A DNA stretch of 64,000 nucleotides from Candidatus Aenigmatarchaeota archaeon. Its GTDB lineage: Archaea; Aenigmatarchaeota; Aenigmatarchaeia; GW2011-AR5. The translations under genes were made by a program, and so were the position numbers. Numbering within the stretch: position 1 is the stretch's first letter; every line of letters starts with the position of its first letter. The notes beneath the pieces were generated by a model. That model was given only the letters and a program-made list of their open reading frames with translations, had not been told where the DNA came from and did not search any database. This document shows positions 813-51,552 of this stretch, piece after piece. Location of the stretch: NCBI GenBank assembly GCA_016180945.1, contig JACPAG010000001.1, positions 19,900-83,899 of the forward strand. Direction: 5' to 3'.

Positions 813-3476
813 ATGCCCACAGACAAGGAGATAAAAAATGAGTTCAGAAAAACAGCTAGTGCTGATCCCGACAAGTTTTATGCGACTAGTTTTCTGAAAC
901 AGCAGGGTTTTTCAAGAAAGAAATGCGAAAAATGCGGAATTATGTTCTGGTCTGTTTCCGGCTATGTTTGCGGCAAAGGCGAATGTTCCGGCGGATTCAG
1001 GTTTATAGGTAAACCGAGAAGAAAATTAAGCTACATAGACGTATGGAAAGAATTTTCACGCATATTCAAAAAATTGGGGTATACGCCGATAAGGCGGTAT
1101 CCGGTTGTCGCCCGCTGGCGCGACGATACGGATTTCGTGCAGGCATCCATATATGATTTCCAGCCTTATGTCGTGTCCGGCGAAGTCGAGCCGCCTGCCA
1201 ATCCATTGGTTGTGCCGCAATTCTGTTTGCGTTTTAATGACATAGACAATGTCGGCATTACCGGCTCCCATTATACAGGTTTCGTGATGATAGGCCAGCA
1301 TGCATTCCTGCCTGAAAATTTATGGGACCAGGAGAAAATCTTTTCTGACATTTATGCATGGCTAAGAAAAGGGCTCGGACTCAAAAAAGAAGAGATAACA
1401 TTTCATGAAGATGCCTGGGCAGGCGGCGGCAATTTTGGTCCGTCGATGGAATTTTTTTCAGGCGGCCTTGAAATCGGAAACCAAGTCTATATGCTTTACG
1501 AAAGAACCCCGTCAGGCTACAAGGAACTGAAGCTGAAGGTCTGCGACATGGGGATGGGGCACGAAAGGAATGCATGGTTTTCCTCTGGCACGAATACGAG
1601 CTATGACGTAACATTCCCTGTAGTTATGAAAAAGCTGAAACATATATCAGGCGTTCGTGTTGATGAATCGATTATAAAAAAATTCCTGCCGTTTTCTTCA
1701 AATCTCAACATAGACGAAATCCAGGATATAGATAAAGCATGGAGTTCTATAGCAAAATCTATAGGATGCGATGTAAAAATATTAAAAGAAAATGTATTGG
1801 ATTTGGCGGCGCTGTATTCTGTTGCCGAGCATTCCAGAACCTTATTGGTCGCGCTTAGCGACGGGGCTTTGCCGGGCAACGTCGGCGGCGGCTATAATCT
1901 GCGCACAATTTACAGGCGCGCCCAGAATTTCATAGACAGGTTCGGATGGAAAATGGATATACCGGAAATATGCAGGTGGCATGCCTCGTATCTGAAGCCT
2001 TTGTTCCCGGAGCTGTCAAAAAATTTATCCGGTGTCGGAGAAATACTGAAAGCCGAAGAAGAAAAGTTCATTGCAACAAAAGAGAAATCCCGCCAGATAG
2101 TTGCCGGCATAATAAAGGCGGATATAACAGGTGAGAAATTGCTGGAGCTGTACGACAGTCAGGGAATTGCTCCCGAATTAATAAAGGTGGAGGCTGAAAA
2201 ATTGGGCAGGGTCGTAGTTGTGCCTCAGGATTTCTATGCGCGCGTTTCCGGGCTTCATGAAAAATCCGTTCATGAAGAAAAGAAAACGCTTCCTTTGGAT
2301 GGCATTCCGGAAACAAGGCTCATGTTTTACGAAGACCAGAACAGGAAAGACTTTTCCGCAAAGGTTCTGAAGATAATAGGCAACCATGTAGTCTTGGACA
2401 GCACATATTTCTATCCGCGCGGAGGCGGCCAGGAACCTGACCACGGCCAGATTGGCGGCTGCCATGTCTATAGCGTAGAAAAGTTCGGCAATATCGTAGT
2501 CCATTTTCTGGAAAAGGCCGGTTTCAGGGAAGGGCAAACAGTCAACTGTTCGATAGACTGGGACAGGCGGCAGCAGCTTACGCAACATCACACGGCGGTT
2601 CATATAGTAAACGCTGCCGCCTCAAAAATACTCGGGACGCATGCCTTCCAGGCAGGCGCGAAAAAAGACGTTGACAAGGCCCATATAGACATAACGCATT
2701 ACAAGGCATTAACCGACGAAGAGCTGGAAAAAATAGAAAATGAAGCGAACAAAACAGTAAGGAAAGAACTGAGGGTGAAGAAGACATTTAAACCGAGAGA
2801 AGAGGCGGAAAAAAATTACGGCTTTGACATCTATCAGGGCGGCGCTGTACCCGGAAAGAGGATACGGATTGTCGAAATAAGCAATACGGATGTAGAGGCA
2901 TGCGGCGGCACGCATCTTGATAATACAAAAGACGCCGGAAGAATAATTCTCACAAAATCTGACCGCATACAGGATGGCATCGTAAGGATAGAGCTCGTGG
3001 CAGGGAAAGCCGCAGAAGAGTTTTCTGTCAAAGACCACAACGTTCTTCTGGAATGCCTGTCTATATTGAATGCTACTGAAAAGACGGCGCTAAAGAAGGC
3101 GGAAGAGCTGTTCAGAAAATGGAAGGCATCAAGAAAAAAATCATACGGTGATATCATAGAAGACTTCAAAAGCCAGTTTGTAAACAATGTCCTGATAAAA
3201 AAATTAAAAGACGTTGGAATGAAAGAACTGCAGGAGATTTCCAGGGCGCTGTCGACGGACAGGACAGTAATAGTATTCTTCTCCGTCAGCGACAAGATCT
3301 ATGTCTTCTGTTCCGCCGGTGGCCAGACAAAAACAAACGCCGGAGAACTGGCAAAGAGGTTGTGCACAGAACTGGACGGCAAGGGTGGCGGCACAAAAAC
3401 CATCGGCCAGGGACTTGGGAGCGACAAGGAAAAGGTTGACGGGCTGATAAAGAAACTGCGCGGGGAGTTTATATGA
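813..3476 (+). CDS. alaS: alanyl-tRNA synthetase, archaeal type
   Basis: 887-aa ORF. Class II catalytic core (FQPYVVSGEVEPPANPLVVPQFCLRFNDIDNVG). Editing-domain HxxxH (HHTAVHIV) and CGGTH motifs. C-terminal GKGGGTK tail. Confidence 0.95.
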   Translation: MPTDKEIKNEFRKTASADPDKFYATSFLKQQGFSRKKCEKCGIMFWSVSGYVCGKGECSGGFRFIGKPRRKLSYIDVWKEFSRIFKKLGYTPIRRYPVVARWRDDTDFVQASIYDFQPYVVSGEVEPPANPLVVPQFCLRFNDIDNVGITGSHYTGFVMIGQHAFLPENLWDQEKIFSDIYAWLRKGLGLKKEEITFHEDAWAGGGNFGPSMEFFSGGLEIGNQVYMLYERTPSGYKELKLKVCDMGMGHERNAWFSSGTNTSYDVTFPVVMKKLKHISGVRVDESIIKKFLPFSSNLNIDEIQDIDKAWSSIAKSIGCDVKILKENVLDLAALYSVAEHSRTLLVALSDGALPGNVGGGYNLRTIYRRAQNFIDRFGWKMDIPEICRWHASYLKPLFPELSKNLSGVGEILKAEEEKFIATKEKSRQIVAGIIKADITGEKLLELYDSQGIAPELIKVEAEKLGRVVVVPQDFYARVSGLHEKSVHEEKKTLPLDGIPETRLMFYEDQNRKDFSAKVLKIIGNHVVLDSTYFYPRGGGQEPDHGQIGGCHVYSVEKFGNIVVHFLEKAGFREGQTVNCSIDWDRRQQLTQHHTAVHIVNAAASKILGTHAFQAGAKKDVDKAHIDITHYKALTDEELEKIENEANKTVRKELRVKKTFKPREEAEKNYGFDIYQGGAVPGKRIRIVEISNTDVEACGGTHLDNTKDAGRIILTKSDRIQDGIVRIELVAGKAAEEFSVKDHNVLLECLSILNATEKTALKKAEELFRKWKASRKKSYGDIIEDFKSQFVNNVLIKKLKDVGMKELQEISRALSTDRTVIVFFSVSDKIYVFCSAGGQTKTNAGELAKRLCTELDGKGGGTKTIGQGLGSDKEKVDGLIKKLRGEFI

Positions 3477-3589
3477 ATGAACGTATTTTACTGCGCAAGA
3501 TGGGCCGGATTGTGAGGGTTGATATAGCCGACCTACCGAAGACGCTGGCCAGATTCAAAAAGGAGATAGAAGAAGCGGAAAAGAGATGA
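3473..3589 (+). CDS. possible 38-aa small ORF coupled to the alaS stop (ATGA overlap)
   Basis: ATG at 3473 overlaps the alaS TGA. Encodes MNERILLRKMGRIVRVDIADLPKTLARFKKEIEEAEKR. It fills the gap to the next gene exactly. No homology recognised. Confidence 0.2.
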   Translation: MNERILLRKMGRIVRVDIADLPKTLARFKKEIEEAEKR

Positions 3590-3590
3590 G

Positions 3591-4031
3591 TTATCCCGTC
3601 CTGTTCAAAAGTCCGCATTCTACCGGCGTTATTGTCAGAAGTCTGCATAAAGACAAAAATATGCTGCTCCTTGTTATATTTCTCAGCTCTTCTTGGTTAT
3701 TGCGGTTATTTATAACAAGAAAAGTTTCTTTGCCGGGTATTTTCTGCACTATCAGCTGAACCTGGTTTGTGTTAGTCATTGTTAGTTCAGGCAGCTGATT
3801 AACGTAATCAATGAGATTCGTGTCATTATAGAAGAATTTTAACGACGTAAAGCCGTTCTGGACGTAAACAGATTCCGTTTTTGCGTCAAGCTCGCCGTCG
3901 ATGACAAAATTTTCCAGCGGCCTGAATTCTTCTACCGGCACTGATGAGGTGAAAAAGAACGCCAACGAAGAGAACGAGAACGTGAATATTATGAAGGCGA
4001 CCATGATTTTTTGCTGCGTCGATTTTCTCAT
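3591..4031 (-). CDS. hypothetical exported/membrane-anchored protein
   Basis: 146-aa ORF with an N-terminal signal/anchor (IMVAFIIFTFSFSSLAFFF). Confidence 0.55.
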   Translation of the reverse strand: MRKSTQQKIMVAFIIFTFSFSSLAFFFTSSVPVEEFRPLENFVIDGELDAKTESVYVQNGFTSLKFFYNDTNLIDYVNQLPELTMTNTNQVQLIVQKIPGKETFLVINNRNNQEELRNITRSSIFLSLCRLLTITPVECGLLNRTG

Positions 4032-4063
4032 TTATTCACCTGTTAAGTTTATCGATGAAATAA

Positions 4064-15291: not shown

Positions 15292-15311
15292 TTTCTTACG
15301 TTAGAGATAAA
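15292..15311. promoter_or_regulatory. 20-mer TTTCTTACGTTAGAGATAAA, copy 1
   Basis: Identical 20-mer recurs at 15782-15801. A 2-mismatch copy is at 19557-19576. All three lie upstream of minus-strand gene starts. Confidence 0.5.
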
Positions 15312-15781: not shown

Positions 15782-15801
15782 TTTCTTACGTTAGAGATAA
15801 A
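15782..15801. promoter_or_regulatory. 20-mer TTTCTTACGTTAGAGATAAA, copy 2
   Basis: Exact repeat of 15292-15311, 12-31 nt upstream of the ATG at 15770 (minus strand). Confidence 0.5.
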
Positions 15802-17092: not shown

Positions 17093-18031
17093 ATGATAGA
17101 CGAACTGATTAAAAAAATATCTTCTTTTTCCGGTTTGGAAGAGCGCGATATCAGGAGCAAAATTATTGATAAACAGGCGGAATTATCCGGCATGATTTCA
17201 GAAGAAGGCGCCGCCTACATAGTTGCCAAAGAGCTTGGCGTGAGCCTGACAAGAAAGCAGGAAAGGCTCAAGATAGAAAACGTTGTTCCTGGCATGCAGA
17301 ATGCCGATGTGGTTGGAAAAATCATCAGGGCGTTTCCCGTGAAAGAGTTTTCAACCGAGAAGGCAAAGGGTCGCGTCAGGAATATAATTGTCGGCGACGA
17401 AACCGGCACTGCCCGCCTGAGTTTATGGAACGATGAAATAGAAAAATTTAATTTTAATGACGGCGACGTTGTTCGTATTCGCGGCTTCGTCCGCGAAAGC
17501 CTTGGCGGCCCTGAAATACGGCTTGGCCGTTACGGGCTGGTCCAGAAAAGCGACGAAAAAATAGTCGTGGCTGCCAGACAGGTCGATCGCATCAAATTGT
17601 CGGATTTGCGCGAAGGCTATTACAAGGAAGTCCGCGCGGTGCTTGTTCAAGTATTCGAATCTAGTCCCTTCTATGAAGTTTGCGCGCAGTGCGGTTCGCG
17701 CATTAAAGACGGCAAATGCGAAGAGCATGGAGATTCCAAAGACTATGGTCTTGTTGTCACAGGCATCATAGACGATTCCACCGATTCGATGCGGGCTGTA
17801 TTTTTTAACGAACACGCAGAAAAAATACTGAACCTGAAAAAAGACGAAGCTAAACGCTTGTTCGACTCAAAGAAAGATGTTTCGGCTGTGATGCAGAACG
17901 TTTCTTTGGGAACAGAATACGTCTTGGAAGGGAAAGCCAAGAAAAACGATTTTTTCGACCGCCTCGAATTCGTGGTGAATAACATTAAAAGCGTTGACGT
18001 GAAGAAAGAGATAGAAATACTCGTGGGTTAA
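17093..18031 (+). CDS. replication protein A-like ssDNA-binding protein (OB folds + zinc ribbon)
   Basis: 312 aa. OB-fold-like repeats. CAQCGSRIKDGKCEEHG zinc motif. Sits next to radA. Confidence 0.75.
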   Translation: MIDELIKKISSFSGLEERDIRSKIIDKQAELSGMISEEGAAYIVAKELGVSLTRKQERLKIENVVPGMQNADVVGKIIRAFPVKEFSTEKAKGRVRNIIVGDETGTARLSLWNDEIEKFNFNDGDVVRIRGFVRESLGGPEIRLGRYGLVQKSDEKIVVAARQVDRIKLSDLREGYYKEVRAVLVQVFESSPFYEVCAQCGSRIKDGKCEEHGDSKDYGLVVTGIIDDSTDSMRAVFFNEHAEKILNLKKDEAKRLFDSKKDVSAVMQNVSLGTEYVLEGKAKKNDFFDRLEFVVNNIKSVDVKKEIEILVG

Positions 18032-18048
18032 AAAATAAAATAAATAAT

Positions 18049-18130
18049 ATGGCACTCGACTACGACTGGAAGGAGCAAAAATTATAAAATGGCAATCGAC
18101 TTTTTGCATCAGCAAAAAGGGGATGATATG
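18049..18130 (+). promoter_or_regulatory. tandem leader modules A (18049-18088) and B (18089-18130) in front of radA
   Basis: A: ATGGCACTCGAC-TACGACTGGAAGGAGCAAAAATTATAAA. B: ATGGCAATCGAC + CTTTTTGC-ATCA-GCAAAAAG + GGGATGAT + ATG (radA start at 18128). Confidence 0.7.
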
Positions 18131-19556: not shown

Positions 19557-19576
19557 TTTCTTATGTTAGTGATAAA
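19557..19576. promoter_or_regulatory. variant copy (TTTCTTATGTTAGTGATAAA) of the 20-mer at 15292/15782
   Basis: 18 of 20 identical. Lies 28 nt upstream of the ATG at 19529 (minus strand). Confidence 0.4.
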
Positions 19577-19604: not shown

Positions 19605-19862
19605 TTAGACTATCTCCTTCTCGGAAACTATCACGAAGTCGCCGACGCTCTTCACGGAAGAAAACGGGATTAACAGGCGGTTGTTGTCGTCTTTCTCCAG
19701 ATTCAGGTCGTTGCTGTGCTTTGTCGTCTCGACAAGAACTATGTTCAGCAGTTCCCCTGATTCTGAAACAAAATTTATGTCGCCTACAACGCCGAATTTG
19801 CGGCCTGTTTCCTCGGAAACAATTACCTTCCCCAATAAGTCGCGTCCTCTGTTCTTTATCAT
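19605..19862 (-). CDS. PRC-barrel domain protein
   Basis: MIKNRGRDLLGKVIVSEETGRKFGVVGDINFVSESGELLNIVL ... LLIPFSSVKSVGDFVIV is the typical PRC-barrel pattern. Internal Met start chosen. Confidence 0.7.
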   Translation of the reverse strand: MIKNRGRDLLGKVIVSEETGRKFGVVGDINFVSESGELLNIVLVETTKHSNDLNLEKDDNNRLLIPFSSVKSVGDFVIVSEKEIV

Positions 19863-20230: not shown

Positions 20231-21355
20231 TTACGACTGGACAACTAAAGTTTTTATTCGTGGCGACAGCTGGTAAACATATGCCCTGTCCCTCTGGGCC
20301 CGTTCCAAAAGTCCTTCTTGCAGCAGTCTTTTCGTGATGTTGTTCACGCTTCTGACTGCATGCTGCCTGGACTTGTATTTCGAAAGGTCCAGCATATTTG
20401 CGACCTCGCCGGGAGAACAGGATTTTTTGGCCAGTATGTCTATAATCCCTTTCTGCATGGGCGTCAGTTTCTCCAGCATGTCCAAAGAAACCTCCTTTTT
20501 GGGCGCAGCCTCTTTCCATGTAAGGTCTTCCGTTATGGTGTCCCGTCCTTTTTCTATCGCGGCCTTTATCAGGTCGTTGCAGTATCTTATAACCTCACGT
20601 GGAAAGCCGCCTGTTGATTCGTATATTGTATCGATAGTTTTGTCATCAAACAGCCCGAGACCCGTGCCGCCGACAGCCGCTATGCGTTTCTCCATCATTT
20701 CCCGCATTTCTTCTTTTGTTAGGGATAAGACCTCTACTTTCGCGGCTATCCGCTTTCTTAATGTCTCCAATTTATCCCTTATTTGCACCTCAAAAACAGG
20801 CAGCCCTGAAAGAACCAGAATCATGTTATCCACCTGGTCGCTTATAACGCGCAGCCATTCTAAAACATTCAGGTCAGACTCGTGGCATTCGTCGAGCATC
20901 ACGACAAGCGTTTTGCCGGAAAGCCTGCCGTTAAGGAATTTCGGCAGCTGGTGCAGGTTTTTTATGTTTTGCCATGGTAGATACCAAGGCTTGGGGAATT
21001 TATCCCTGAAAATATCAACAAATTCCTCAGCCTTCGAAGGCGGTTTGCCAATAAAAATATAGTCGTGCCTGTCAGGCAGATTGTCAGCTATCCATTTTAG
21101 CATGCTTGTTTTTCCCGATCCAGTAGGCCCTACAAGAAGCACGATTTTCTGCCTTTCTTCAATGGCGCTGATAAGAGAATTTACCTGGGTTTTATAACCC
21201 ACAAAAAGCGCCGGCGAAATATGAAAGGTAAAGGGATTGTTTTTCCATCCTCTTTTAGAAAACCATGCAAAATGGTCGTTTGTTTCGAGCATTTCCGGAC
21301 TGTTTTTTATGTTAGCGTCATTACCAGTCCCGCTATCGGGTTTTCCAGCTCCCAT
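20231..21355 (-). CDS. Orc1/Cdc6-related AAA+ ATPase with C-terminal winged helix
   Basis: Walker A LLVGPTGSGKTS, Walker B LVVMLDECH, GGFPREVIRYCN (compare Cdc6 GDARRALDLLR). C-terminal wHTH (GEVANMLDLSKYKSRQHAVRSVNNITKRLLQEGLLER). Adjacent to the TTCAC array. Confidence 0.75.
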   Translation of the reverse strand: MGAGKPDSGTGNDANIKNSPEMLETNDHFAWFSKRGWKNNPFTFHISPALFVGYKTQVNSLISAIEERQKIVLLVGPTGSGKTSMLKWIADNLPDRHDYIFIGKPPSKAEEFVDIFRDKFPKPWYLPWQNIKNLHQLPKFLNGRLSGKTLVVMLDECHESDLNVLEWLRVISDQVDNMILVLSGLPVFEVQIRDKLETLRKRIAAKVEVLSLTKEEMREMMEKRIAAVGGTGLGLFDDKTIDTIYESTGGFPREVIRYCNDLIKAAIEKGRDTITEDLTWKEAAPKKEVSLDMLEKLTPMQKGIIDILAKKSCSPGEVANMLDLSKYKSRQHAVRSVNNITKRLLQEGLLERAQRDRAYVYQLSPRIKTLVVQS

Positions 21356-21398
21356 ATAGACCTATTAGTAGCTGGCTTTAAATGTTTATATATACATA

Positions 21399-21862
21399 AG
21401 TTCACAGGATATTCACAGATTTTCGTGAACATAATACTCATATTCACAGCTCTTCACGAAGATAAAACCTACCTTCACAGCTTCACAACATAAATTCACA
21501 TGAATATTCACAACATTCACGTGAATACTTCACCAGTATAAATGAAGGCTATGAAGTCTTAGTGAAGGTTTTATGAAGTGTTAATGAAGAGCAAAATGAA
21601 GATAGTGAGAGATTTTTCCATATAAAACCTGTAGTAATCAACAAGAATGTGAGTTTCGACAAAATCCAAACGAGTTTTTGTGAGGGTCTTCACGAATGTC
21701 ACAGAACTCTTCACTTTATCTTCACTGATGTTCACAGAAGTTTATTAATCTTCATATGAAGTTCACGTTGTTCACGTGATATTCACGTTAACTTCACGTA
21801 ATCTTCACAAACTCACCGTGAAGAGCACTCATATTTGTGAGTAAAAATAACAATTTTGTGAG
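21399..21862. repeat. dense phased array of TTCAC / (A/G)TGAAG pentamer iterons
   Basis: About 19 TTCAC on the top strand, in two blocks (21401-21533 and 21688-21808). A block of at least 7 inverted (A/G)TGAAG (21543-21610) lies between them. Typical spacing is 9-12 bp. The region is non-coding. Confidence 0.85.
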
Positions 21863-21971
21863 CTATTGAAAGACTATACAAAAGAAAAATCTAGGTAAAA
21901 TTTAAGACTTAAAGGAATTTTCGGCATTAATTAGCCTAATTAGGCGTATAAAAGGTATATTTAAGGAGAAA

Positions 21972-22271
21972 TTACTCAAGCTCGCTCATCGTATGGAGCA
22001 GCTTCATGATTTTTTGGATATCTTTTCCTTCAGCAAGCTTTTCCAGAACTACAGGCTTGAGTTTTATAACCCTGACAAGCGGTTTTGGCCCTCCCAAGCT
22101 TGTATCTTCGATAAGCGGCTTTAAAATAGAGTCGGCATACTTGGCAACCGTAAGATGATGCAATTTCGCCTCTCTGGCTATTCTACGCAACCATAAACCG
22201 TCCGGATGGGAAGCCAACACCCCTATAATCGTTGCTACCTTTTTCATGTCATACCCAGGTTTTCTGCCCAT
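21972..22271 (-). CDS. small winged-helix protein
   Basis: 99 aa. ASHPDGLWLRRIAREAKLHHLTVAKYADSIL. Confidence 0.55.
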   Translation of the reverse strand: MGRKPGYDMKKVATIIGVLASHPDGLWLRRIAREAKLHHLTVAKYADSILKPLIEDTSLGGPKPLVRVIKLKPVVLEKLAEGKDIQKIMKLLHTMSELE

Positions 22272-27731: not shown

Positions 27732-27834
27732 GAAAAACCTCTTATTTGTTTGGATTTTCCGGCATACCCCTCAATTTCGCTATGTTTAAAAGTGTTCAAA
27801 ACCAATTAATCTGAGTGATGACAATGTTTATAAA

Positions 27835-27921
27835 ATGGCACTCAACTTGCGTAGTAAGTAGAGGAGCGGAGCGACCAAACATTATAGTATGGCAATCGAC
27901 TTGCGGAGCAAGGGGATTATG
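27835..27921 (+). promoter_or_regulatory. degenerate + intact leader modules B in tandem in front of pepA
   Basis: 27835: ATGGCACTCAAC + CTTGC-GTA-GTAAG (decayed). 27889: ATGGCAATCGAC + CTTGC-GGA-GCAAG + GGGATT + ATG (27919). Confidence 0.7.
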
Positions 27922-29409
27922 AAGATAGACGTGGCTGTTAGTTCTTTGAAGCTGTTTAAAACCGACCTCCTTGCTGTCGGCGTTTTTGAGGATGAGCGCC
28001 TGAATGCAGACGCAAAAGCCGTTGATGCCATGCTGGCTGGCGAGTTATCAACAGTCCTCCGAAAGGAAGAGTTCAAAGCAGAATTCAAGCAGACGCGGCT
28101 TCTGTCAACTGGCAAAAACATCAGGAACGTTCTTCTCGTCGGCCTGGGAAAGAAAGACGAATATGATTTGGAAAGGCTGCGAAAAGTCTCGGCAACGGCA
28201 GCCAAAGCCGCCAGGAATAACCGGATAAAATCATTTTCGACCATTCTCCATAGAATTGAAATTAAAAATCGTTCTGTTGCGGAGAGAGCGCAGGCCATAG
28301 CTGAAGCAACCGTTCTCGGCCTGTACAAATTCAACAAATACAAGACAGAGAAAACAGATTTCGTGGTCGAGTCGCTGGCTGTCCTGGAAGAAGACAGGCG
28401 TAACGTAAAAGCCATAGAAGGCGCTGTTAGGTCAGGCCACGTGATAGCGGATGCAACAAACTATGCCCGCGATCTTGTCAACAGCCCTGCGTGTTTTGTA
28501 ACGCCGTCAGCCTTGGCGGAAGAAGCCAGACGCATAGCGCGGGAAAACAATCTTAAAGCCCAAGTCTTCGGCCGCGAGGAAATCAAAAGCATGGGCATGA
28601 ACGCGTTGTTGGGCGTCAGCAAGGGCAGCGAGCAGGAACCGAAATTTATAATTTTAGAGTATAATCCAACAGCAAAAGAAAAAATCGCCGTCGTCGGAAA
28701 GGGCATTACGTTCGATTCAGGCGGGATGGACCTGAAGCCTCCGGCATACATGGAGGACATGAAATTGGACAAGGCAGGCGCGGCAGCCGTGCTCGGCATA
28801 ATGCAACTTGCAGCAAAATTAAGGCTTCCGTTGCACGTCATCGGTGCTATGCCGGCAACAGAGAACATGCCAGGCGGCGCGGCCCAGAAGCCTGGCGATG
28901 TCGTAACTGCTTATAACAAAAAAACCATAGAAATCATCAACACAGACGCGGAAGGTAGACTAGTTCTGGCCGACGCGATAAGTTATGTTGAAAAAAACTA
29001 CAAGCCGTCTGCAATAATTGATTTGGCAACGTTGACAGGCGCATGCATCATCGCCTTGGGTTATCATGCAGCCGGCATATTCGGCAGCGAAAATCTGCTG
29101 GAAAAATTAAAAGCCGCCGGCAACGAATCTTTTGAGCGCGTCTGGCCGCTGCCCCTGTGGCAGGAGCACAAAGAAACAGTCAAAGGCGAGCTTGCAGACG
29201 TGAAAAACGCCACTAAAGCCGGCGTGGCAGACGCAGGCGCAATCAACGGCGCGGCATTTTTGTCCAACTTCGTCGAGAAAACGCCTTGGGCCCACATCGA
29301 CATAGCAGGCACTGCGTGGAGCCCGGAAGAGCGCGAATACGTTCCAAAGGCGGCAACTGGTTACGGAGTCCGCCTCATAACGCAGCTTCTGATGGACTGG
29401 AAGAAATAG
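27919..29409 (+). CDS. pepA: leucyl aminopeptidase (M17)
   Basis: VGKGITFDSGG and NTDAEGRLVLAD signatures. The first 10 ORF-track residues belong to the leader module. Confidence 0.92.
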   Translation: MKIDVAVSSLKLFKTDLLAVGVFEDERLNADAKAVDAMLAGELSTVLRKEEFKAEFKQTRLLSTGKNIRNVLLVGLGKKDEYDLERLRKVSATAAKAARNNRIKSFSTILHRIEIKNRSVAERAQAIAEATVLGLYKFNKYKTEKTDFVVESLAVLEEDRRNVKAIEGAVRSGHVIADATNYARDLVNSPACFVTPSALAEEARRIARENNLKAQVFGREEIKSMGMNALLGVSKGSEQEPKFIILEYNPTAKEKIAVVGKGITFDSGGMDLKPPAYMEDMKLDKAGAAAVLGIMQLAAKLRLPLHVIGAMPATENMPGGAAQKPGDVVTAYNKKTIEIINTDAEGRLVLADAISYVEKNYKPSAIIDLATLTGACIIALGYHAAGIFGSENLLEKLKAAGNESFERVWPLPLWQEHKETVKGELADVKNATKAGVADAGAINGAAFLSNFVEKTPWAHIDIAGTAWSPEEREYVPKAATGYGVRLITQLLMDWKK

Positions 29410-31120: not shown

Positions 31121-32026
31121 ATGAAGAAACAGAATGGAACAGAAACAAGCTCATTTGGGACAAGCGGAAGATTCAATCACGATTCTTCTAAATTTTATTC
31201 AAGCAAGATGTACTCTGATACTTCTAAATCAAAATTAGACCACTCTCAAGAAAATCCTATTTCAGAAAAAATTATCAATAAAATATTCTGCAAATCAAGC
31301 GAAAAAATGGAAGAATTACCAGATAATAGCATTCATTTAATGATAACATCACCACCTTATAACGTAGGCAAAGAATATGATGAGAACCTTTCTATTGAAG
31401 ATTACAGAAGTTTACTAAAATCTGTAGTCAAAGAAGTACACAGAGTTCTTGTTGTCGGTGGTAGAGCATGCATTAATGTGGCGAATCTTGGAAGAAAACC
31501 ATACATTCCACTTCATAGTTTCATAATTGAAGATATGCTAAATCTAGGGTTTTTTATGCGTGGCGAAATTATTTGGAATAAGGGTTCAAGTGCTGGAACT
31601 TCCATGGCTTGGGGGAGTTGGTTATCGGCAACAAACCCTACCTTAAGAGATATACATGAATACATACTGATTTTTTCAAAAGGTAATAATGGACGTTTAA
31701 ATTTAGATAAAAAAGAAAGCACAATAACAAAAGAAGAATTTATGGAATTTACAAAAAGTGTTTGGTCTTTCCCTACTCAATCTGCACGGGCGGTAGGGCA
31801 TCCTGCACCATTCCCAATAGAATTACCATTGAGATTAATCAAGTTCTATACATTCAAAGGTGATGTGGTTTTAGACCCATTCGTGGGTAGTGGAACAACT
31901 GCGATAGCTGCCAGAAAATTAGAAAGGAAATATGTTGGATACGACATAAGCAAAGAATATTGCAAACTTGCAGAAACACGAATTAAAAAGGAATTTGCAC
32001 AGAAAACTCTCAGGGTTGCTGTCTAA
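31121..32026 (+). CDS. beta-class DNA methyltransferase (N4-cytosine or N6-adenine)
   Basis: Motif IV SPPY (LMITSPPYNVGKEYD) precedes motif I (LDPFVGSGTTAIAA). This order defines the beta class; SPPY is more typical of m4C enzymes. Confidence 0.88.
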   Translation: MKKQNGTETSSFGTSGRFNHDSSKFYSSKMYSDTSKSKLDHSQENPISEKIINKIFCKSSEKMEELPDNSIHLMITSPPYNVGKEYDENLSIEDYRSLLKSVVKEVHRVLVVGGRACINVANLGRKPYIPLHSFIIEDMLNLGFFMRGEIIWNKGSSAGTSMAWGSWLSATNPTLRDIHEYILIFSKGNNGRLNLDKKESTITKEEFMEFTKSVWSFPTQSARAVGHPAPFPIELPLRLIKFYTFKGDVVLDPFVGSGTTAIAARKLERKYVGYDISKEYCKLAETRIKKEFAQKTLRVAV

Positions 32027-32652
32027 TCATTCCACCTATCAACCCATCTTTTGTAAACATCATATTTTATGTCATCCTTGACCCAATTGATTGAGATTTT
32101 CAATGTTTCTTCATGCTCTATCATTTGTTTGATTGCTTCTTTGCTAAATTCAACACCTCTTGGATTCGTTCCTGCTTTTGGCATTTTGAGATATTTCTTA
32201 CGTCCTAACAGGTTAAATATCTCTTTCTGAACTTTAATCGGTATTAGGAAAAAACTGTCTTTATTTTTGCTCCACCATACTTGAACAAGAATAATATCAC
32301 ATTTCGGGTTGTAATTTTTGATAAATTTTCTTGAACTTTTTGCATCCACAGTCCAAACGGCTTTGACGCCACCATTTCCTGTTATCGTCTTTATCGATAC
32401 CCCTTTTCCATTAACTTTTACATCTATTTCTGGCTCTGTTGTTGGTATATCTGTGTCGACATTTTCTTCTCCAAATTTATGTATAAGTAGACCACCGATA
32501 ATCTTTTCTCTTAAAGAACCGACTTCCATACCGATTTTATTAGCCCTTGAACTCTCAATTTCGGCTATTCTGAACAATTTTGGTAATTTATTCTGAATCT
32601 TTGATTTGGTAAAGTTGTCTATGAAGAGTTTAGTCAAATTTGCTTCTGACAT
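32023..32652 (-). CDS. putative type II restriction endonuclease (PD-(D/E)xK-like)
   Basis: Convergent with the methyltransferase with a 4-nt overlap. Candidate catalytic stretch TEPEIDVKVNGKGVSIKT. Very AT-rich. Confidence 0.55.
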   Translation of the reverse strand: MSEANLTKLFIDNFTKSKIQNKLPKLFRIAEIESSRANKIGMEVGSLREKIIGGLLIHKFGEENVDTDIPTTEPEIDVKVNGKGVSIKTITGNGGVKAVWTVDAKSSRKFIKNYNPKCDIILVQVWWSKNKDSFFLIPIKVQKEIFNLLGRKKYLKMPKAGTNPRGVEFSKEAIKQMIEHEETLKISINWVKDDIKYDVYKRWVDRWND

Positions 32653-32753
32653 AAATTTTATTAATTTTTAGCGCTTAAATACCAACCAAAGAGTTTACAG
32701 AACCATTTTTAGTAAAAAGTAATGTTTAAAAATTCTGTTAACTATTAAAAATA

Positions 32754-34076
32754 ATGAAAAAGAACATCGATATTAACCAATTAATGGTAAATCCAAAAAA
32801 CTATCGTTTCGATCCGGTAGAAAATCAAAATGAAGCAATTGACTTGATGCTCGAAGAAAAGGAAGAAGAAATACTAAATTTGGCTAAACATATAGTAGAT
32901 CATGGACTAGATAAGGCAAAAGATTCTAGAGTCTTAGAAATAAAGAAAGACCTCTATCTTGTTCTTGATGGGAACAGAAGAGTAACAGCAATTAAATGCA
33001 CAACAGATCCTTCTTTAATAAAAAGTGATTCATTAAAAAGCAAATTTATCAATTTGAGAAAAGGGAAAGGAAAAATTCCAAATAAAGTTAATTGTTTCGT
33101 GTATAAAGATGAAAAAGATGCGGCAGAATGGATTAAACTTGATCATACTGGAAAGAATAGTGGAGTAGGTCAAGATCCTTGGGAAGCTGCGGGAAAGGAA
33201 AGGTTCGATTGGGATTTTGGCGGAAAACTTTCTCCTGCTATGCAGGCAATTAACCTATTTGAACATGAAACTAAACACGGGCTTAATAAGAAAAAACTTA
33301 AAATTTCTACCGTCAATCGTATAATTTCTAACCCAGAGTCTCGATCGTTTTTGGGGATAGAAATAAGTAATGGAGGAATCGTTTTAACTTCAACAAAGAG
33401 AGAGGTAATTGAGAGGTTAGACAAACTTTTCAATAAAATTATAATAGACGATGTTCCAGTTTCAGCTGTGTACCGCACTCCAGATGCAATTAAATTCATG
33501 GAAAATCTTTTTGGGTCTAAGCCTAAAATTGCCAGAACAAAAATATCTATTTCTCCAAAAGGAATTCCAAAAAAGAAAAGTAGGTCAAAGCGTACTTTTC
33601 CTAGATCTGGTAGCAGAAATTTTTTAATACCCGCAAGTTGTATTTTGCAAATTTATGAATCTAGAATTAATAACATATATCATGAATTAAGATCTTTGCC
33701 CTTAGATGTGGGAACCAATGCAGTAGCGGTTTTGTTTAGAGTTTTTTTAGAAACTGGTCTAGATCACTATGCTGAAAAATTTGGGTTTGCTTTTGGAACT
33801 AATTTTGGAACTAAAATAAAACTTGCAGGAAAAATTACAAAAATAACTGATGATTTAGAGAAAAGGGGTTATAAAAAAACTCAATTAAATAACATTAGAT
33901 CTGTAACGAGAAAAGGTAATGCAATCCTGTCAATTGATTACTTCCACGAATACGTACATTCTTTTAAAAACAACCCCACACCTATTGATCTAATATATAA
34001 ATGGGATAATCTTCAGGAATTTTTCGAAATACTTTGGGAAGAGATTTCAAAAAAAGAAAAAAGAGGCAAAAAATGA
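32754..34076 (+). CDS. ParB N-terminal (ParB/Srx-fold) domain protein with large uncharacterised C-terminal region
   Basis: IDINQLMVNPKNYRFD and LVLDGNRRVTAIK match the ParB-N boxes. The remaining ~330 aa are unassigned. The stop overlaps the next ATG (ATGA). Confidence 0.7.
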   Translation: MKKNIDINQLMVNPKNYRFDPVENQNEAIDLMLEEKEEEILNLAKHIVDHGLDKAKDSRVLEIKKDLYLVLDGNRRVTAIKCTTDPSLIKSDSLKSKFINLRKGKGKIPNKVNCFVYKDEKDAAEWIKLDHTGKNSGVGQDPWEAAGKERFDWDFGGKLSPAMQAINLFEHETKHGLNKKKLKISTVNRIISNPESRSFLGIEISNGGIVLTSTKREVIERLDKLFNKIIIDDVPVSAVYRTPDAIKFMENLFGSKPKIARTKISISPKGIPKKKSRSKRTFPRSGSRNFLIPASCILQIYESRINNIYHELRSLPLDVGTNAVAVLFRVFLETGLDHYAEKFGFAFGTNFGTKIKLAGKITKITDDLEKRGYKKTQLNNIRSVTRKGNAILSIDYFHEYVHSFKNNPTPIDLIYKWDNLQEFFEILWEEISKKEKRGKK

Positions 34077-34924
34077 AATACTATTCGCCGCTTAGATATC
34101 CAGGAGGAAAAGGAAAAATAACGTCCTATATGAAAGAAATAATTAAAAAAAATTCTTTGGTGGGGGGTATCTATGTTGAACCTTATGCGGGTGGAGCCGC
34201 AGTAGCCATTTCACTTCTACTGGATGAGTATGTAGATAAAATCATTATAAATGACATAGATTATTCGATATATGCATTTTGGTATTCTATGATAAATAAA
34301 ACTAAAGAACTTTGTCAATTAATAGAAAAAACGCCTATAACAATAACAGAATGGAAAAAACAAAAGAAAATTCAATCTATAAAGAATTGTGATTTACTCA
34401 CTTTAGGATTTTCTACATTATTTCTGAATCGAACAAATAGATCTGGAATATTAAAAAATGCAGGACCAATAGGTGGGTTTGAACAAAAAGGAAAGTGGAA
34501 ACTAAATGTTAGATATAGCAAATCTGACATTATAGAACGCATCAAACGTATTAGTCTTTATAAAAATCGTATTGAGATATATAATTACGATGCAATTGAA
34601 TTAATTAAAACTATTAACAAGTCATTACCTTCGAATACTTTGATATATTTTGATCCTCCTTATTATATGAAAGGCAAAGAATTGTACTTTAATTATTACA
34701 GACGTAAGAATCATGAAGAAATAAGTAATAAAATAAAGAAAATTAATAAACATAGATGGATTGTTACATACGATAATGTAGCATCGATAAGAAAGTTATA
34801 CAAATTGTATAGGAAGAAAAAATTCTTGCTTAATTATAGTGCAGGTAGATCTAATAGAGGTGAGGAAGTTATGATTTTTTCAAATAACATTAATGTTGTC
34901 GGCCGCCGTATATTGGATAGATAA
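34073..34924 (+). CDS. Dam-family (D12 class) N6-adenine DNA methyltransferase
   Basis: MKYYSPLRYPGGKGKI N-terminus (motif X/I region) and IYFDPPYY motif IV. Confidence 0.88.
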   Translation: MKYYSPLRYPGGKGKITSYMKEIIKKNSLVGGIYVEPYAGGAAVAISLLLDEYVDKIIINDIDYSIYAFWYSMINKTKELCQLIEKTPITITEWKKQKKIQSIKNCDLLTLGFSTLFLNRTNRSGILKNAGPIGGFEQKGKWKLNVRYSKSDIIERIKRISLYKNRIEIYNYDAIELIKTINKSLPSNTLIYFDPPYYMKGKELYFNYYRRKNHEEISNKIKKINKHRWIVTYDNVASIRKLYKLYRKKKFLLNYSAGRSNRGEEVMIFSNNINVVGRRILDR

Positions 34925-43418: not shown

Positions 43419-43576
43419 AATTATTCTTGTTGCTGCCGGAATAAAAGGCTTTTATTTCTTCGGCTTTGCATCCAAAGTCCATTCTGCAACTAAATTCGGA
43501 AAGTTGCAATTAAGGTCGGAAAGTGTTACATAAGATTCCGTTTTTAAGGTTTCCTTCTATAATTCTTTTGTTCATT

Positions 43577-44686
43577 ATGGAAACAGAAACGCCTTTTTCT
43601 GAGCTTCCAGAAGCATTAGTAGAAGAGATGCTGAATAAGTCAGATGAATTGGGCAGAGACTTATCAAACACATTCAAAGATATAAATGATAAAAAGTCAG
43701 AGGTCAGAAAAAAGCTCTATGAACTTGAATATCTGAAGAAGGATAGCGATATAATAACGACACCATCGTACCCTACAACTTGTGGTGTTGATGGCTCTTA
43801 TGGCGGTGAAAATCTTTTATCAACCGACATAACTGCTATGGCAAGTGTAGCGGTTGAAGGACTTATACCGCCAAAGGAAGTTAAATATTGGGAAAACCCC
43901 CACTATATTTGTAAAATTCTTACATTACAACACAGCGATGCCACAAGCTTGGTTGCAAGAGCTATTATGATGACTATGGAATTGGAGTTAGCAACAAAAT
44001 CACCTCATGACGTTGTGTTTATGGATGGTTCTTTAACCACACCATTTATTTATTTCAATCAAGCACTAAGCAGAATAAAAGACGTTTCACCAGAACTTTC
44101 AAGTTATTTTATAGAAAGATTAGGATTAACATTGGATTCTTATATTGAGGTATTAGCTGCTGTAAGAAGTGATAAAATATATTCAAGCATACCAAAGTAT
44201 ACAAGCAGGAAGGAAATAGCGAAACTTGTTGGTCTAAATAATTACGAAGATAGGGGTCTTCTCTCTTTCATACTTGAACCTTCAGAGTTTGTTGGGCCAA
44301 TGCCGTTAGAACAACCGAATCAAGAATGGCACATAAATAACCCATTACAATTCAGCATATTATTTGATAAAATTATAAGTTCTCTGAAAGAAATCTATGT
44401 CATATACTATAGGCCTTTTAGTCACATCCCAGCTTTGCGCATAGAGATGTCTAAAAATATAGCTCTGAATAATAATAGATTATCAATACTGCTTGAATCG
44501 GTAAAATTACAATGTGTAGGTGGTGGCATTATGGAACCATATCCTTTGTATTTGGCTGATAGAATGGTAAAGCACTTGGGGACAGCTATTCCAGCTATAC
44601 GTAAGACAATGACTCAAGAAATGGCTGGAGAATGGGGAGATGACGTAACAAGCTTATATTTAGCAATGCACGGGTACAGAACGTGA
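43577..44686 (+). CDS. NurA-like nuclease
   Basis: Motif series CGVDGSYGGE ... MMTMELELA ... VVFMDGSL matches the NurA D/E/D catalytic layout. Met at 43577 chosen. AT-rich. Confidence 0.7.
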   Translation: METETPFSELPEALVEEMLNKSDELGRDLSNTFKDINDKKSEVRKKLYELEYLKKDSDIITTPSYPTTCGVDGSYGGENLLSTDITAMASVAVEGLIPPKEVKYWENPHYICKILTLQHSDATSLVARAIMMTMELELATKSPHDVVFMDGSLTTPFIYFNQALSRIKDVSPELSSYFIERLGLTLDSYIEVLAAVRSDKIYSSIPKYTSRKEIAKLVGLNNYEDRGLLSFILEPSEFVGPMPLEQPNQEWHINNPLQFSILFDKIISSLKEIYVIYYRPFSHIPALRIEMSKNIALNNNRLSILLESVKLQCVGGGIMEPYPLYLADRMVKHLGTAIPAIRKTMTQEMAGEWGDDVTSLYLAMHGYRT

Positions 44687-44690
44687 TTAT

Positions 44691-46454
44691 ATGGAAAATG
44701 AAGAAATAGACGTAAACAAAGCTTTTGATAAAGCGGAGAAGATAGGTGTTATTGGTTCTCCATCCTCAACTAATCGATTAACTATTGATATTCTTGGAAC
44801 TGCAATGAATAAGAAACTTGTTGGCACTCTATGTGTATTCAAACATATGCAGGACGGAAGAGAGCATTTTTCATTAGGCCAAATTACAGAAATTCAATTA
44901 AAGAATGTTTGGAGTGAAGACCCCACAATGAGAGGTCTAATAAGACAAAAGGGTAGGGTAGACCCTATAACAGAAAAACAAGATACACACACTGCGAGTA
45001 TGATAGTAAGCTCGGTATTTAGTAAAGCCGATTCTGTAATGGGTCAGAGCATCTTAGGAACAGTACCTTCAACGGGGAGTCCTATAAAATTAATCAATAA
45101 TGATATTATGAAAGGACTTTTAGTTAATCATCAAAATGAATTATCTTATCTTGGGCGAGCTTATGGTTCTGATATTTTAATGCCTATGTGGTTCAAGCAT
45201 TTTGGCAAAGAAACTGGTGGGGTTGGAGAAGCTTACCATATAGGGATATTTGGTAAAACAGGTTCTGGAAAATCTGTATTCGCAAAAATGGCAATGCTTG
45301 GTTATGCAAGACATCCATCTATGTCTATGTTCATTATTGACCCGCAAGGCGAATTTGCGAAAGAAATTAAAAGAGATACAAAATTAAAGGGAATATTGGA
45401 AAAGAAATTGCACAGAGAAGTTAAAATATACGATTTACATAATCTTGTGATGACTGGATGGGAACTTTTTAAAAAGACCTTAGTTAATTCAGAGTTCTTT
45501 GATAAACTAACAATTTGGGAAGAAATAAAACCCAGAGCTGCAGAAGTCGTAGTCAATATTTTGAGAGCAAAAATGGGTGGGCAAGCACAACTTGGACAAC
45601 ATACAGAAATACCACCATATAAAGCGTTTGAACAAGCAGCTTTTGATCGCGTATGGAATGCCTTATCACGGGATGATATATGGACTAAGATTTACTACGC
45701 CAAAGATTCAAGAGAAAGAGTACAGTTACAATATGCTGATGCAAATAAAGATGAATTCTTCGAGATATGGAAACAAGTAGCAAATCTATTCAAATATGAA
45801 GGCCGTTCAGGTGTTAAGAAAATAATTGATTTAGTCAATGAAGTTGTAAGCAAAGAAAATGAGGAGAATAGGCCTATTACTATTATAGATTTATCCGAAT
45901 CAGAAATACCAGACGATATATTATGGAACGAAAATATAAGTTTCGTTGTCATAAAAGAACTTTTGGATAAATTAAAGTCTGAGGCCGAAAAAGAGTTTAA
46001 GAAAGAAAGAAATTTAAACTGCTTGGTTGTAATAGATGAAGCTCATAGATTAGCACCAAGAGAAAGAAAAGAGAACGAAAATTTAGAAGTACTTAAGGCA
46101 ACATTTATTGATGCTGTAAGGACTACGAGAAAGTTTGGTCTTGGTTGGATGTTTATTAGTCAAACACTATCAAGCTTAGATAGAGGTATAGTGGAACAAT
46201 TACGAGCTTATGTCTTTGGTTTTGGTTTAGGATGGGGTATAGAACTACAAGCTCTGAAAGAATTGATTGGTGGTAATCGTGATGCTATAAGCTTGTACCA
46301 ATTATTTAATGATCCTCAAAGCTCATTTGGAGAAAAACAATACCCATTTATGATGGTCGGGCCTCTGTCGCCATTATCATTTTCAAGTATACCTTTATTC
46401 GTTACGGCTTTGAATTTTCCTGACGAATTTTTATCTATTAATTTTTCTGAATAG
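44691..46454 (+). CDS. HerA-like (DUF87) hexameric ATPase/translocase
   Basis: Starts 4 nt after the nurA-like stop. N-terminal barrel-like region (IGVIGSPSSTNRLTIDILG ... GTLCVF). Walker A IFGKTGSGKS. Walker B CLVVIDEAHRLAP. Confidence 0.8.
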   Translation: MENEEIDVNKAFDKAEKIGVIGSPSSTNRLTIDILGTAMNKKLVGTLCVFKHMQDGREHFSLGQITEIQLKNVWSEDPTMRGLIRQKGRVDPITEKQDTHTASMIVSSVFSKADSVMGQSILGTVPSTGSPIKLINNDIMKGLLVNHQNELSYLGRAYGSDILMPMWFKHFGKETGGVGEAYHIGIFGKTGSGKSVFAKMAMLGYARHPSMSMFIIDPQGEFAKEIKRDTKLKGILEKKLHREVKIYDLHNLVMTGWELFKKTLVNSEFFDKLTIWEEIKPRAAEVVVNILRAKMGGQAQLGQHTEIPPYKAFEQAAFDRVWNALSRDDIWTKIYYAKDSRERVQLQYADANKDEFFEIWKQVANLFKYEGRSGVKKIIDLVNEVVSKENEENRPITIIDLSESEIPDDILWNENISFVVIKELLDKLKSEAEKEFKKERNLNCLVVIDEAHRLAPRERKENENLEVLKATFIDAVRTTRKFGLGWMFISQTLSSLDRGIVEQLRAYVFGFGLGWGIELQALKELIGGNRDAISLYQLFNDPQSSFGEKQYPFMMVGPLSPLSFSSIPLFVTALNFPDEFLSINFSE

Positions 46455-51234: not shown

Positions 51235-51552
51235 TCATCCCCACACAAACCTTAAATCCCTTCCTACCACACCCCCCTGTTTCCTATACCCCCCACATTT
51301 TCTCAAAATAACCCCCTTTCTTTTAAAACATACCTTCGTTTCCGTTGGAGGTAACACCACACCACCATTTCATATAACACAATTATACATATAACAAGGG
51401 AAAATCTCCACAGGAAATGTTGGGGTGTTGCCTCCACAAAACTATATTTCAACAACCCCACTTTCCACTAGAGATATATTTATATATTCTCCAAAAGAAG
51501 TAATGGTAGATTTTTGTTTTTCTTGGTTGGTGTGGGGTGTGGAAAGTGGAAG
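51235..51552. other. candidate chromosomal replication origin (ORB-type boxes + AT-rich unwinding element)
   Basis: ORB-like TCCACAGGAAATGTTGGGGTG (51407-51427). Inverted pair CCCCACTTTCCACTAG (51457-51472, = CTAGTGGAAAGTGGGG on the minus strand) and GTGTGGAAAGTGGAA (51537-51551), flanking the AT-rich GAGATATATTTATATATTCTCC. C-runs (G-strings on the other strand) at 51268-51320. Directly upstream of cdc6. Confidence 0.7.

Follow-up and report, generated by a model that had tools for sequence, protein, structure and literature searches.

A conserved, helically phased RTGAA array beside an Orc-shaped AAA+ ATPase gene in Aenigmarchaeota is a candidate assembly platform for the ATPase

Why should an archaeal chromosome keep some thirty copies of one short motif, set about one helical turn apart, in front of a single ATPase gene? 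The question is raised by a 64,000-nucleotide stretch of contig JACPAG010000001.1 from Candidatus Aenigmatarchaeota archaeon (GenBank assembly GCA_016180945.1, positions 19,900 to 83,899 of the forward strand), which we call the window and on which all coordinates are counted unless a related locus is named. Here, an array of short repeats occupies a gap of 616 bp, which runs from the stop of a gene for a 99 amino acid protein (21972–22271, minus strand) to the start of a gene for an AAA+ ATPase with a C-terminal winged helix-turn-helix (wHTH) domain (20231–21355, minus strand). An earlier note, made from the sequence alone, had placed the array directly upstream of this AAA+/wHTH gene, which the positions of the open reading frames (ORFs) bear out, and had asked whether it is a second replication origin or the origin of an integrated replicon. 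We favor another answer, with a probability of roughly 0.55: that the array is the native chromosomal assembly platform of the AAA+ protein encoded immediately downstream.

The repeats of the locus are dense and regular. TTCAC occurs 19 times on the top strand within 21401–21808, with ten copies in 21401–21533 and nine in 21689–21808, almost exactly the count and the two blocks that the earlier note had given. At the background of the window outside the array (0.74 per kb), 0.30 copies are expected per 412 bp, in keeping with the note's estimate of less than one, and the Poisson probability of at least 19 is 9.5e-28. Pairs of the form TTCAC-N6-TTCAC are found five times in the window, every one of them in the array; 100 dinucleotide-preserving shuffles give an expectation of 0.10. 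Between the two blocks, the inverted motif RTGAAG occurs on the top strand six times in 21542–21600, at distances of 9–12 bp. At least seven such copies had been claimed; the inverted block is real, and the supposed seventh copy, GTGAGA at about 21603, is a box of the CTCAC type. When RTGAA/TTCAY is counted on both strands, 31 sites lie in 21401–21830 against 2.3 expected (P = 2e-24), and palindromes of the TTCAYRTGAA type number three among these 31 sites. The steps between sites are mostly about 11 bp and Tandem Repeats Finder reports a period of 11 at both 21550–21589 and 21771–21808, so that the proposed spacing of one helical turn is upheld. Four additional boxes, which read TTTGTGAG or ATGTGAG on the top strand (CTCACAAA on the gene strand), are present at 21647, 21678, 21835, and 21856; the array is thus as real as first described and runs slightly past the end at 21862 previously assigned to it.

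The adjoining ATPase, a protein of 374 amino acids, had been described as Orc1/Cdc6-like, a description that holds for its fold and fails for its sequence. The AlphaFold2 (AF2) model, with a predicted local distance difference test score (pLDDT) of 82.7, is divided into an AAA+ base, a lid domain, and a winged helix at the C-terminus. Foldseek matches the full-length model best to archaeal Orc1/Cdc6 structures (1w5t, 1w5s, 2qby, 1fnn, and 2v1u) and to eukaryotic Cdc6/Orc1, with E values from 9.5e-14 to 1e-9 and template modeling (TM) scores of about 0.45–0.54. The isolated AAA module superposes best on TnsC and MuB, which form filaments on DNA. In the model, two helices (residues 111–119 and 134–145), joined by a loop of lower confidence, lie between the strands formed by residues 97–102 and 149–154.

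Sequence comparisons place the protein elsewhere. The match to Pfam AAA_22 (PF13401; E = 1.1e-10, 42.4 bits against a cutoff of 27) marks it as ExeA/GspA-like, and the ExeA-like NCBIfam model TIGR03015 aligns over positions 8–257 of 269 with residues 37–277, including the N-terminal ExeA-type box (E = 1.7e-20), at a score of 73.6 bits that lies far below the equivalog cutoff of 324.5. A weak match to MarR_2, a wHTH family, covers residues 297–356. Against the Orc1/Cdc6 model TIGR02928, the score is 19.6 bits where the cutoff is 181.3, and the match is confined to the P-loop; neither Cdc6_C (PF09079) nor Cdc6_lid (PF22703) matches the protein at E ≤ 0.1; hhalign against the Cdc6 of the same genome returns a probability of 2.7%; and a sequence search of the PDB yields P-loop-only matches. 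The AAA+ protein is closest to Orc1/Cdc6 in fold, yet it lies outside the Orc1/Cdc6 family by sequence and is an ExeA-like AAA_22 ATPase. It shares with the ExeA/GspA ATPases (COG3267, and the XrtA/PEP-CTERM-associated TIGR03015) its best sequence match, namely the N-terminal NPF box and the ATPase module. Unlike them, it carries a C-terminal wHTH in place of a peptidoglycan-binding or TPR domain, and it sits in an archaeal context of LigT, PRC-barrel, RadA, and RPA genes with no type II secretion system. Public annotations of the orthologs include AAA family ATPase, ExeA/GspA, type II secretion system/type IV pilus ATPase, TadA, and thymidine kinase, the last being the name given to the Nanobdella and Nanopusillus homologs in RefSeq/GenBank. 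Secretion ATPase, TadA, and thymidine kinase are misnomers for these proteins.

To ask whether the array belongs to the gene, we turn to its relatives. A deposited protein from a Candidatus Aenigmarchaeota metagenome-assembled genome (MAG) matches the AAA+ protein at 100% identity. More than 120 cluster-level relatives of the AAA+ protein, at 47–58% identity, are essentially all of the Aenigmarchaeota type. On the contigs of three relatives, the genes follow a common order: histone, RPA, RadA, PRC-barrel, AAA+, a gap of 420–650 bp, a gene for a protein of about 100 amino acids, an optional PiT/PhoU, and LigT; the repeat architecture of the gap is alike in all three. A contig scan with an alignment of the full-length AAA+ protein returned mostly P-loop matches, with one locus (L001) as the sole true relative among the matches listed, and a scan of metagenome contigs with an alignment of the wHTH only added 49 further loci. 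A homolog of the small gene lies upstream of the gap in all 37 loci with enough upstream DNA, and in 35 of them it has the same orientation as the AAA+ gene. The statement that small wHTH genes flank the array is supported for one gene and not for the plural. Nearly all loci have the PRC-barrel gene next downstream of the AAA+ gene, and at 65–95% identity it is more conserved than the AAA+ gene itself. The motifs Walker A (GPTGSGKT) and Walker B (DE) do not vary among the AAA+ proteins compared, nor do R202 and R253, and the wHTH segment KYK[ST]RQHA[VL]RS.NN is invariant in all 37 loci.

The repeats are conserved along with the genes. Across the 37 loci, the median density of GTGAA plus TTCAC is 25.4 per kb in the orthologous gap, as against 2.3 per kb in the flanks. 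A few loci with low counts carry ATGAA/TTCAT in place of these, from which we conclude that the motif is RTGAA. In total, 35 non-redundant loci hold about 1,100 sites, or some 31 per locus, and neighboring sites of the same orientation are most often 11 bp apart (213 cases), followed by 10 bp (111), 9 bp (67), and 12 bp (49), with a harmonic at 20–21 bp.

This conservation bears directly on the suggestion, which we consider scarcely credible, that an integrated plasmid or virus has its origin in the array. Beyond a generic likeness to an iteron-plus-rep-gene module, nothing speaks for it. The module keeps its housekeeping synteny (RadA, RPA, histone, LigT, and PRC-barrel) at 37 or more loci over deep divergence, with proteins that are 46–79% identical. 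The G+C content of the array locus is ordinary (0.41, compared with 0.43 for the window). The search for attachment sites and an integrase that the earlier note had proposed came back empty: Pfam scans of the neighboring ORFs contain no integrase, and the window contains no tRNA and no att-like flanking repeats. No relatives of the module were found among 2.9 million viral contigs, a plasmid search returned only bacterial ExeA-like ATPases at about 25% identity, and neither PADLOC nor PHROGs has a specific family for the module proteins. An integrated replicon is rejected on these grounds.

The architecture of the gap, read toward the AAA+ gene, is shared among the related loci and can be followed in the window element by element. 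Immediately downstream of the small-gene stop lies an AT-rich leader (21864–21971, about 72% AT), whose oligo-T run on the gene strand (tttttctttt) is likely the terminator of the small wHTH gene. The array proper opens, in most related loci, with two CTCACAAA boxes 21 bp apart; the distal pair in the window (21835–21863, minus strand) corresponds to top-strand TTTGTGAG at 21835 and 21856. It is followed by block A, which elsewhere comprises 8–14 RTGAA sites and occasional palindromes. In the window, block A (21689–21822, minus strand) holds 12 sites, of which ten read TTCAY on the top strand and hence RTGAA toward the gene, spaced mostly by 9–11 bp and by 20–21 bp at gaps left by absent sites. 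Next, with one or two further CTCACA boxes and an element resembling TTACTAC, comes a spacer whose median length is about 92 bp. Its counterpart in the window (21601–21688, minus strand) is 88 bp long and 65% AT and contains two CTCACA boxes (top-strand GTGAG at 21647 and 21678) together with the semi-conserved TTACTAC element. In an alignment of 18 loci, the order CTCACAAA, AAACTCACAtt, TTACTAC, and an A-rich segment is kept.

Beyond the spacer, the polarity of the sites is reversed. Block B consists across loci of 5–7 inverted CCTTCAYAAA units at 11 bp; in the window, this tandem corresponds to the six inverted sites at 21542–21600 (minus strand; top-strand RTGAAG, or CTTCAY on the gene strand) in steps of 9–12 bp. 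The last part of the array is a palindrome-rich stretch with site pairs about 21 bp apart, after which an (A/T)TTTAAG-type TATA box stands about 28–30 bp before the ATG. The equivalent promoter-proximal block C (21401–21533, minus strand) is mixed, with ten top-strand TTCAC and three RTGAA sites, and includes the palindromes TTCACATGAA (21495–21504) and TTCACGTGAA (21516–21525). Its final site stops 7 bp short of a TATA-rich region. This region, at 21376–21394 on the minus strand, is the putative core promoter of the AAA+ gene, since it matches the known position of archaeal TATA boxes: on the gene strand, TATATATAAA lies at −39 to −30 and ATTTAAAG at −28 to −21 relative to the ATG, and the (A/T)TTTAAG box at about −30 is also found in loci L006, L007, and L008. 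The mRNA would then be leaderless or nearly so. Downstream of the AAA+ gene, the PRC-barrel gene (19605–19862, minus strand) encodes 85 amino acids from an internal ATG (Pfam PRC, 2.7e-5).

The two kinds of site invite assignment to the two DNA-binding proteins of the module. The 99 amino acid protein matches neither Pfam nor NCBIfam; its AF2 model (pLDDT 78) has as its best Foldseek match a winged helix of the MarR/Lrs14(AbfR2) type, at an E value of about 1e-3. The gene strand carries 2.34 CTCAC[ACG]A boxes per locus and the opposite strand 0.09, against a background of 0.23 per kb, and these boxes are missing from all four loci that do not have the small wHTH gene. The simplest assignment has the RTGAA sites read by the wHTH of the AAA+ protein and the CTCACAAA boxes by the small wHTH protein. 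The first pairing is suggested because the recognition helix of the AAA+ protein is invariant where arrays occur and diverged in the array-less Nanopusillaceae, where it reads RERYSDTTIHAISNIL; the second, because the boxes occur only where the small gene occurs.

More distant relatives show which parts of the module travel together. The AAA+ family reaches past the Aenigmarchaeota, with 110 representatives at E < 1e-30, and has members in Nanopusillus, Nanobsidianus, Nanobdella aerobiophila, and Jingweiarchaeum. Deeper relatives with the YK..HA.RS/A.NNI helix keep the synteny of LigT, AAA+, (DUF92), PRC, RadA, and RPA. Upstream of the AAA+ gene, phased TTCAC is clearly enriched in four of these (L001, L060, L062, and L063) and weakly so in L061 (16 versus 8 per kb). 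L001 and L060 keep the array despite the loss of the small wHTH gene and of most of the gap: 15 of 29 TTCAC fall within 720 bp (3200–3920) in L001, and 12 sites (10 TTCAC and 2 GTGAA) within 240 bp (3803–4044) in L060. At both loci, the array overlaps the 5′ part of the divergent LigT coding sequence (LigT_PEase, 2.7e-21), with its sites in mixed codon phases, and the array of L063 likewise extends into the LigT coding region. In L001 and L060, a real LigT gene appears to keep a protein-binding array within its own sequence. In contrast, Nanopusillaceae loci have no array upstream of the AAA+ homolog, where an apparent tRNA gene and AT-rich DNA are found. The tRNA-like gene was recognized by eye, before the AAA+ gene and on the opposite strand, at 3830–3920 of L058 and 3870–3945 of L059 (Nanobdella and Nanopusillus).

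How might such a platform work? Two opposed sets of sites (A versus B and C) flank a spacer of about 90 bp whose fixed length is conserved over the sampled loci of the Aenigmarchaeota type, and CTCACAAA boxes bracket block A and the spacer. We envisage that one protomer of the ExeA-like AAA+-wHTH protein would occupy each RTGAA half-site, held by the invariant recognition helix on a flexible linker, and that the palindromes, such as TTCACGTGAA, would serve as nucleation sites. ATP-dependent contacts between neighboring AAA+ modules could then polymerize the protomers along one face of the DNA, one per helical turn; Walker A and B are present, and R202 and R253 stand in the positions expected of an arginine finger and sensor 2. 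The result would be two oligomers of opposite orientation, one on block A and one on blocks B and C, that face each other over the fixed spacer, much as has been proposed for DnaA on the arrayed boxes of oriC and for Orc1 on inverted ORBs (origin recognition boxes), with the small wHTH protein as an accessory factor on the CTCACAAA boxes. As the last sites adjoin the promoter, the complex would at least set the expression of its own gene, and probably that of the PRC-barrel gene as well.

Several observations weigh against the assembly platform, or limit what it explains. The assignment of RTGAA to the AAA+ protein is a prediction from co-occurrence and conservation. The use of G or A at the R position varies continuously and does not covary with the recognition helix of either protein, and the use of CTCACA or CTCACC likewise shows no clear covariation with recognition-helix residues of the two proteins. 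The homologs of the Nanopusillaceae function without an array, so the core activity of the family may not need one. The position of the promoter and the leaderless start are themselves predictions. Finally, about 30 sites far exceed what an autoregulatory operator needs, which leaves the explanation incomplete as to the task of the complex. A pure regulator is the conservative option, and it leaves the upkeep of about 30 phased sites unexplained; beyond autoregulation, the complex might work as a regulatory switch, or it might mark an origin or a centromere.

A regulator of this fold would have a precedent. According to a published study (PMC9738581), Sulfolobus Orc1-2, a paralog of Orc1/Cdc6, is a transcription regulator of the DNA-damage response. 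It is thus an Orc-fold AAA+-wHTH protein that acts as a regulator and not as an initiator, and the AAA+ protein described here lies near RadA and RPA. Orc1-2 differs in being a true member of Orc1/Cdc6 and in binding single short motifs at many promoters, whereas the window has one giant array in 64 kb: in a regulon test at other promoters, neither phased RTGAA pairs nor TTCAYRTGAA palindromes were found outside the array in the 64 kb.

The inverted blocks could also act at the level of RNA, with the region forming a long 5′ leader or a non-coding RNA in which the repeats are protein-binding motifs or blocks A and B pair. The RNA of the gene strand does fold far better than shuffled sequences (z = −6.2), but the opposite strand folds about equally well (z = −5.8). 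Near-equal folding of both strands follows from the presence of inverted copies of one motif, and this symmetry leads us to reject the RNA reading. The sites occur in both orientations at the 10–11 bp period of duplex DNA, the predicted TATA box lies downstream of the array, and in some lineages the array overlaps a divergently transcribed coding gene. An Rfam scan of the region found no match. We regard a structured RNA as very improbable.

A second, native origin of replication, for which the ExeA-like AAA+-wHTH protein would be a non-Orc initiator, deserves closer attention, and we consider it possible but doubtful. Under this proposal, equally tentative in its details, opposed oligomers seated on blocks A and B would act on the spacer of about 90 bp, or on the AT-rich leader, by melting or remodeling it, and would also recruit MCM. 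The predicted fold has the three domains of Orc1/Cdc6, and the two helices that the model places between β2 and β3 might correspond to an initiator-specific motif (ISM)-like insert. As in archaeal origins that pair Orc1/Cdc6 with origin recognition boxes (ORBs or mini-ORBs), such as Sulfolobus oriC, an AAA+ protein with base, lid, and C-terminal winged helix is encoded next to a long intergenic region of short repeats in inverted blocks round a spacer, a pattern that the cdc6/ORB locus of the same genome displays. Genes for RPA, RadA, and a histone remain linked to the module, and each single strand is strongly self-complementary, as the folding scores above indicate. Unlike the known archaeal systems, however, the locus has RTGAA as its motif and not ORB, about 30 strictly phased sites and not a few ORBs, no marked AT-rich unwinding element, and an ATPase whose sequence kinship to Orc1/Cdc6 is limited to the P-loop.

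The canonical origin is itself in the window. The earlier note had recognized a separate, bona fide cdc6 with ORB boxes, correctly so: cdc6 lies at 51537–52769 (Cdc6_C, 1.7e-26 and 92.5 bits; Cdc6_lid, 1.8e-22), with ORB-like boxes upstream. The region upstream of it (51330–51450) contains the inverted ORB-like sequences GTTTCCGTTGGAGG (51339–51353) and TCTCCACAGGAAA (51406–51420) and C-rich runs; downstream of cdc6 come a gene with a metallophosphoesterase domain, which we take to be possibly the small subunit of PolD, and then PolB. Its distance from the array, just 30 kb in a genome of about 1 Mb, argues against a second origin at the latter. A regression of GC and AT skew over 65 ORFs, corrected for gene orientation, has a weak best AT-skew breakpoint at 50–51 kb, the cdc6 locus, and nothing clear at 21.6 kb, where the signal is weak, 64 kb being short for skew.

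Composition gives the origin little support either. AT content is about 65% in the spacer and about 69–72% in the leader, compared with 56–59% for the locus, which is ordinary intergenic AT-richness. By segment composition, no part of the locus stands out as an AT-rich unwinding element; AT content reaches 72%, compared with 56% for the locus, in the 166-bp segment from the small-gene stop to the first site of block A, a segment in which the distal CTCACAAA pair is included. We know of no link between the AAA+ protein and MCM, and the arrays that enter the LigT coding region (L001, L060, and L063) also count against an origin. Should it be one nevertheless, a native initiator-origin pair outside Orc1/Cdc6 might exist in Aenigmarchaeota and related DPANN archaea, its protein polymerizing on about 30 RTGAA sites and firing or licensing a second origin 30 kb from the cdc6 origin; we offer this as a speculation of limited probability.

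The bacterial initiator DnaA invites the same comparison. On its arrayed boxes (the left and right arrays of oriC, and datA), DnaA combines an AAA+ module of the initiator clade with a tethered, sequence-specific DNA-binding domain. Like the array described here, DnaA arrays include same-orientation runs at about 11 bp, two arrays of opposite polarity, and sites at the protein's own promoter. The two systems differ in that the present protein belongs to another family and has a wHTH, not DnaA domain IV, and in that its archaeal host also has a canonical Orc1/Cdc6 origin. No equivalent of a DnaA-trio or DNA unwinding element was identified at the array. By sequence, the protein is neither DnaA nor Orc1, and what these comparisons leave is an AAA+ protein apparently of the initiator clade, with a tethered domain for DNA binding and a platform of phased sites that would be its cognate.

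A last alternative takes its cue from partition systems. In it, the array is a centromere-like or chromosome-organizing site, a helical scaffold for segregation or for coupling to division in the manner of parC/ParR of plasmid R1 or tubC/TubR of pBtoxis. These systems also have two blocks of phased 11–12-bp iterons at the promoter of an NTPase operon and a small DNA-binding protein in the module (a wHTH protein in TubR), and their site is operator and assembly site at once. The present locus matches them in that the spacing has its mode at 11 bp and blocks B and C come to within 7 bp of the TATA-rich region, in front of an NTPase gene and beside a gene for a small DNA-binding protein. It is the sole such locus in 64 kb and lies 30 kb from oriC; bacterial parS sites, too, are origin-proximal. 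The highly conserved gene directly downstream encodes a PRC-barrel protein. PRC-barrel proteins are cell-division factors in Haloferax (CdpB, linked to FtsZ and SepF), but they also act outside division and their gene neighborhoods vary (bioRxiv 10.1101/2023.03.28.534520), which counts against a centromere.

The ATPase fits this alternative less well. By Pfam and NCBIfam, it is not ParA-, actin-, or tubulin-like; it is an AAA+ protein of the AAA_22 family where the partition systems have actin-like ParM or tubulin-like TubZ, and it brings its own wHTH. The module is chromosomal and phylum-wide, with about three times as many sites, and Nanopusillaceae retain the AAA+ protein without an array. 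We know of no partition system with an AAA+ motor. A centromere is in our judgment unlikely; were it true, the same nucleoprotein complex would be an archaeal centromere based on an AAA+ protein, the first of its kind and equally novel, with a PRC-barrel division protein coupled to it.

The assembly platform that we favor is of interest whichever of these tasks it performs. DPANN archaea are almost all uncultured, and their chromosome organization and cell cycle are little explored. Our literature searches found no description of this AAA+-wHTH family or of the array. The comparisons above define a phylum-wide module made up of three parts: the small wHTH protein, the array with its 30 or so phased sites, and the AAA+-wHTH ATPase, which is Orc-shaped but not an Orc. 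The module sits amid genes of replication, recombination, and division; the window is archaeal and includes RPA, RadA, histone, PolB, and Orc1/Cdc6. What the comparisons provide, a concrete motif in the DNA, a fixed architecture, and a candidate pair of protein and DNA, is open to direct testing in vitro. Should the complex mark an origin or a centromere, it would represent a new class of archaeal initiator or partition machinery, and if it is only a regulator, it would still be an unusual AAA+ polymer on a helically phased operator.

Other repeats and islands were seen in the window. An element of about 35 nt that ends in TATAAAATGGCAATCGACTT is found in two copies at or ahead of the radA start (18089), within 18028–18102, and in two more at or ahead of the start of a gene for an M17 leucyl-aminopeptidase (27889–29409), within 27814–27902, so that these two unrelated genes share upstream sequence and their first codons (MAIDF). 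The 20-nt sequence TTTCTTACGTTAGAGATAAA is present in three copies (15292–15311, 15782–15801, and 19557–19576), two of them identical and one 90% identical, and the third copy (19557–19576) lies just downstream of the PRC-barrel gene. A low-GC island at 31121–34924 (31–34%, against 43%) is a restriction-modification cluster with genes for an N6/N4 DNA methylase, a ThaI-type restriction endonuclease (9.5e-80), a 440 amino acid ORF, and a D12-class adenine methylase. A second such island, at 43523–47591 (33–35%), encodes a HerA-like DUF87 ATPase and a homolog of DruA of the Druantia system (2.2e-92) and is probably a defense island.

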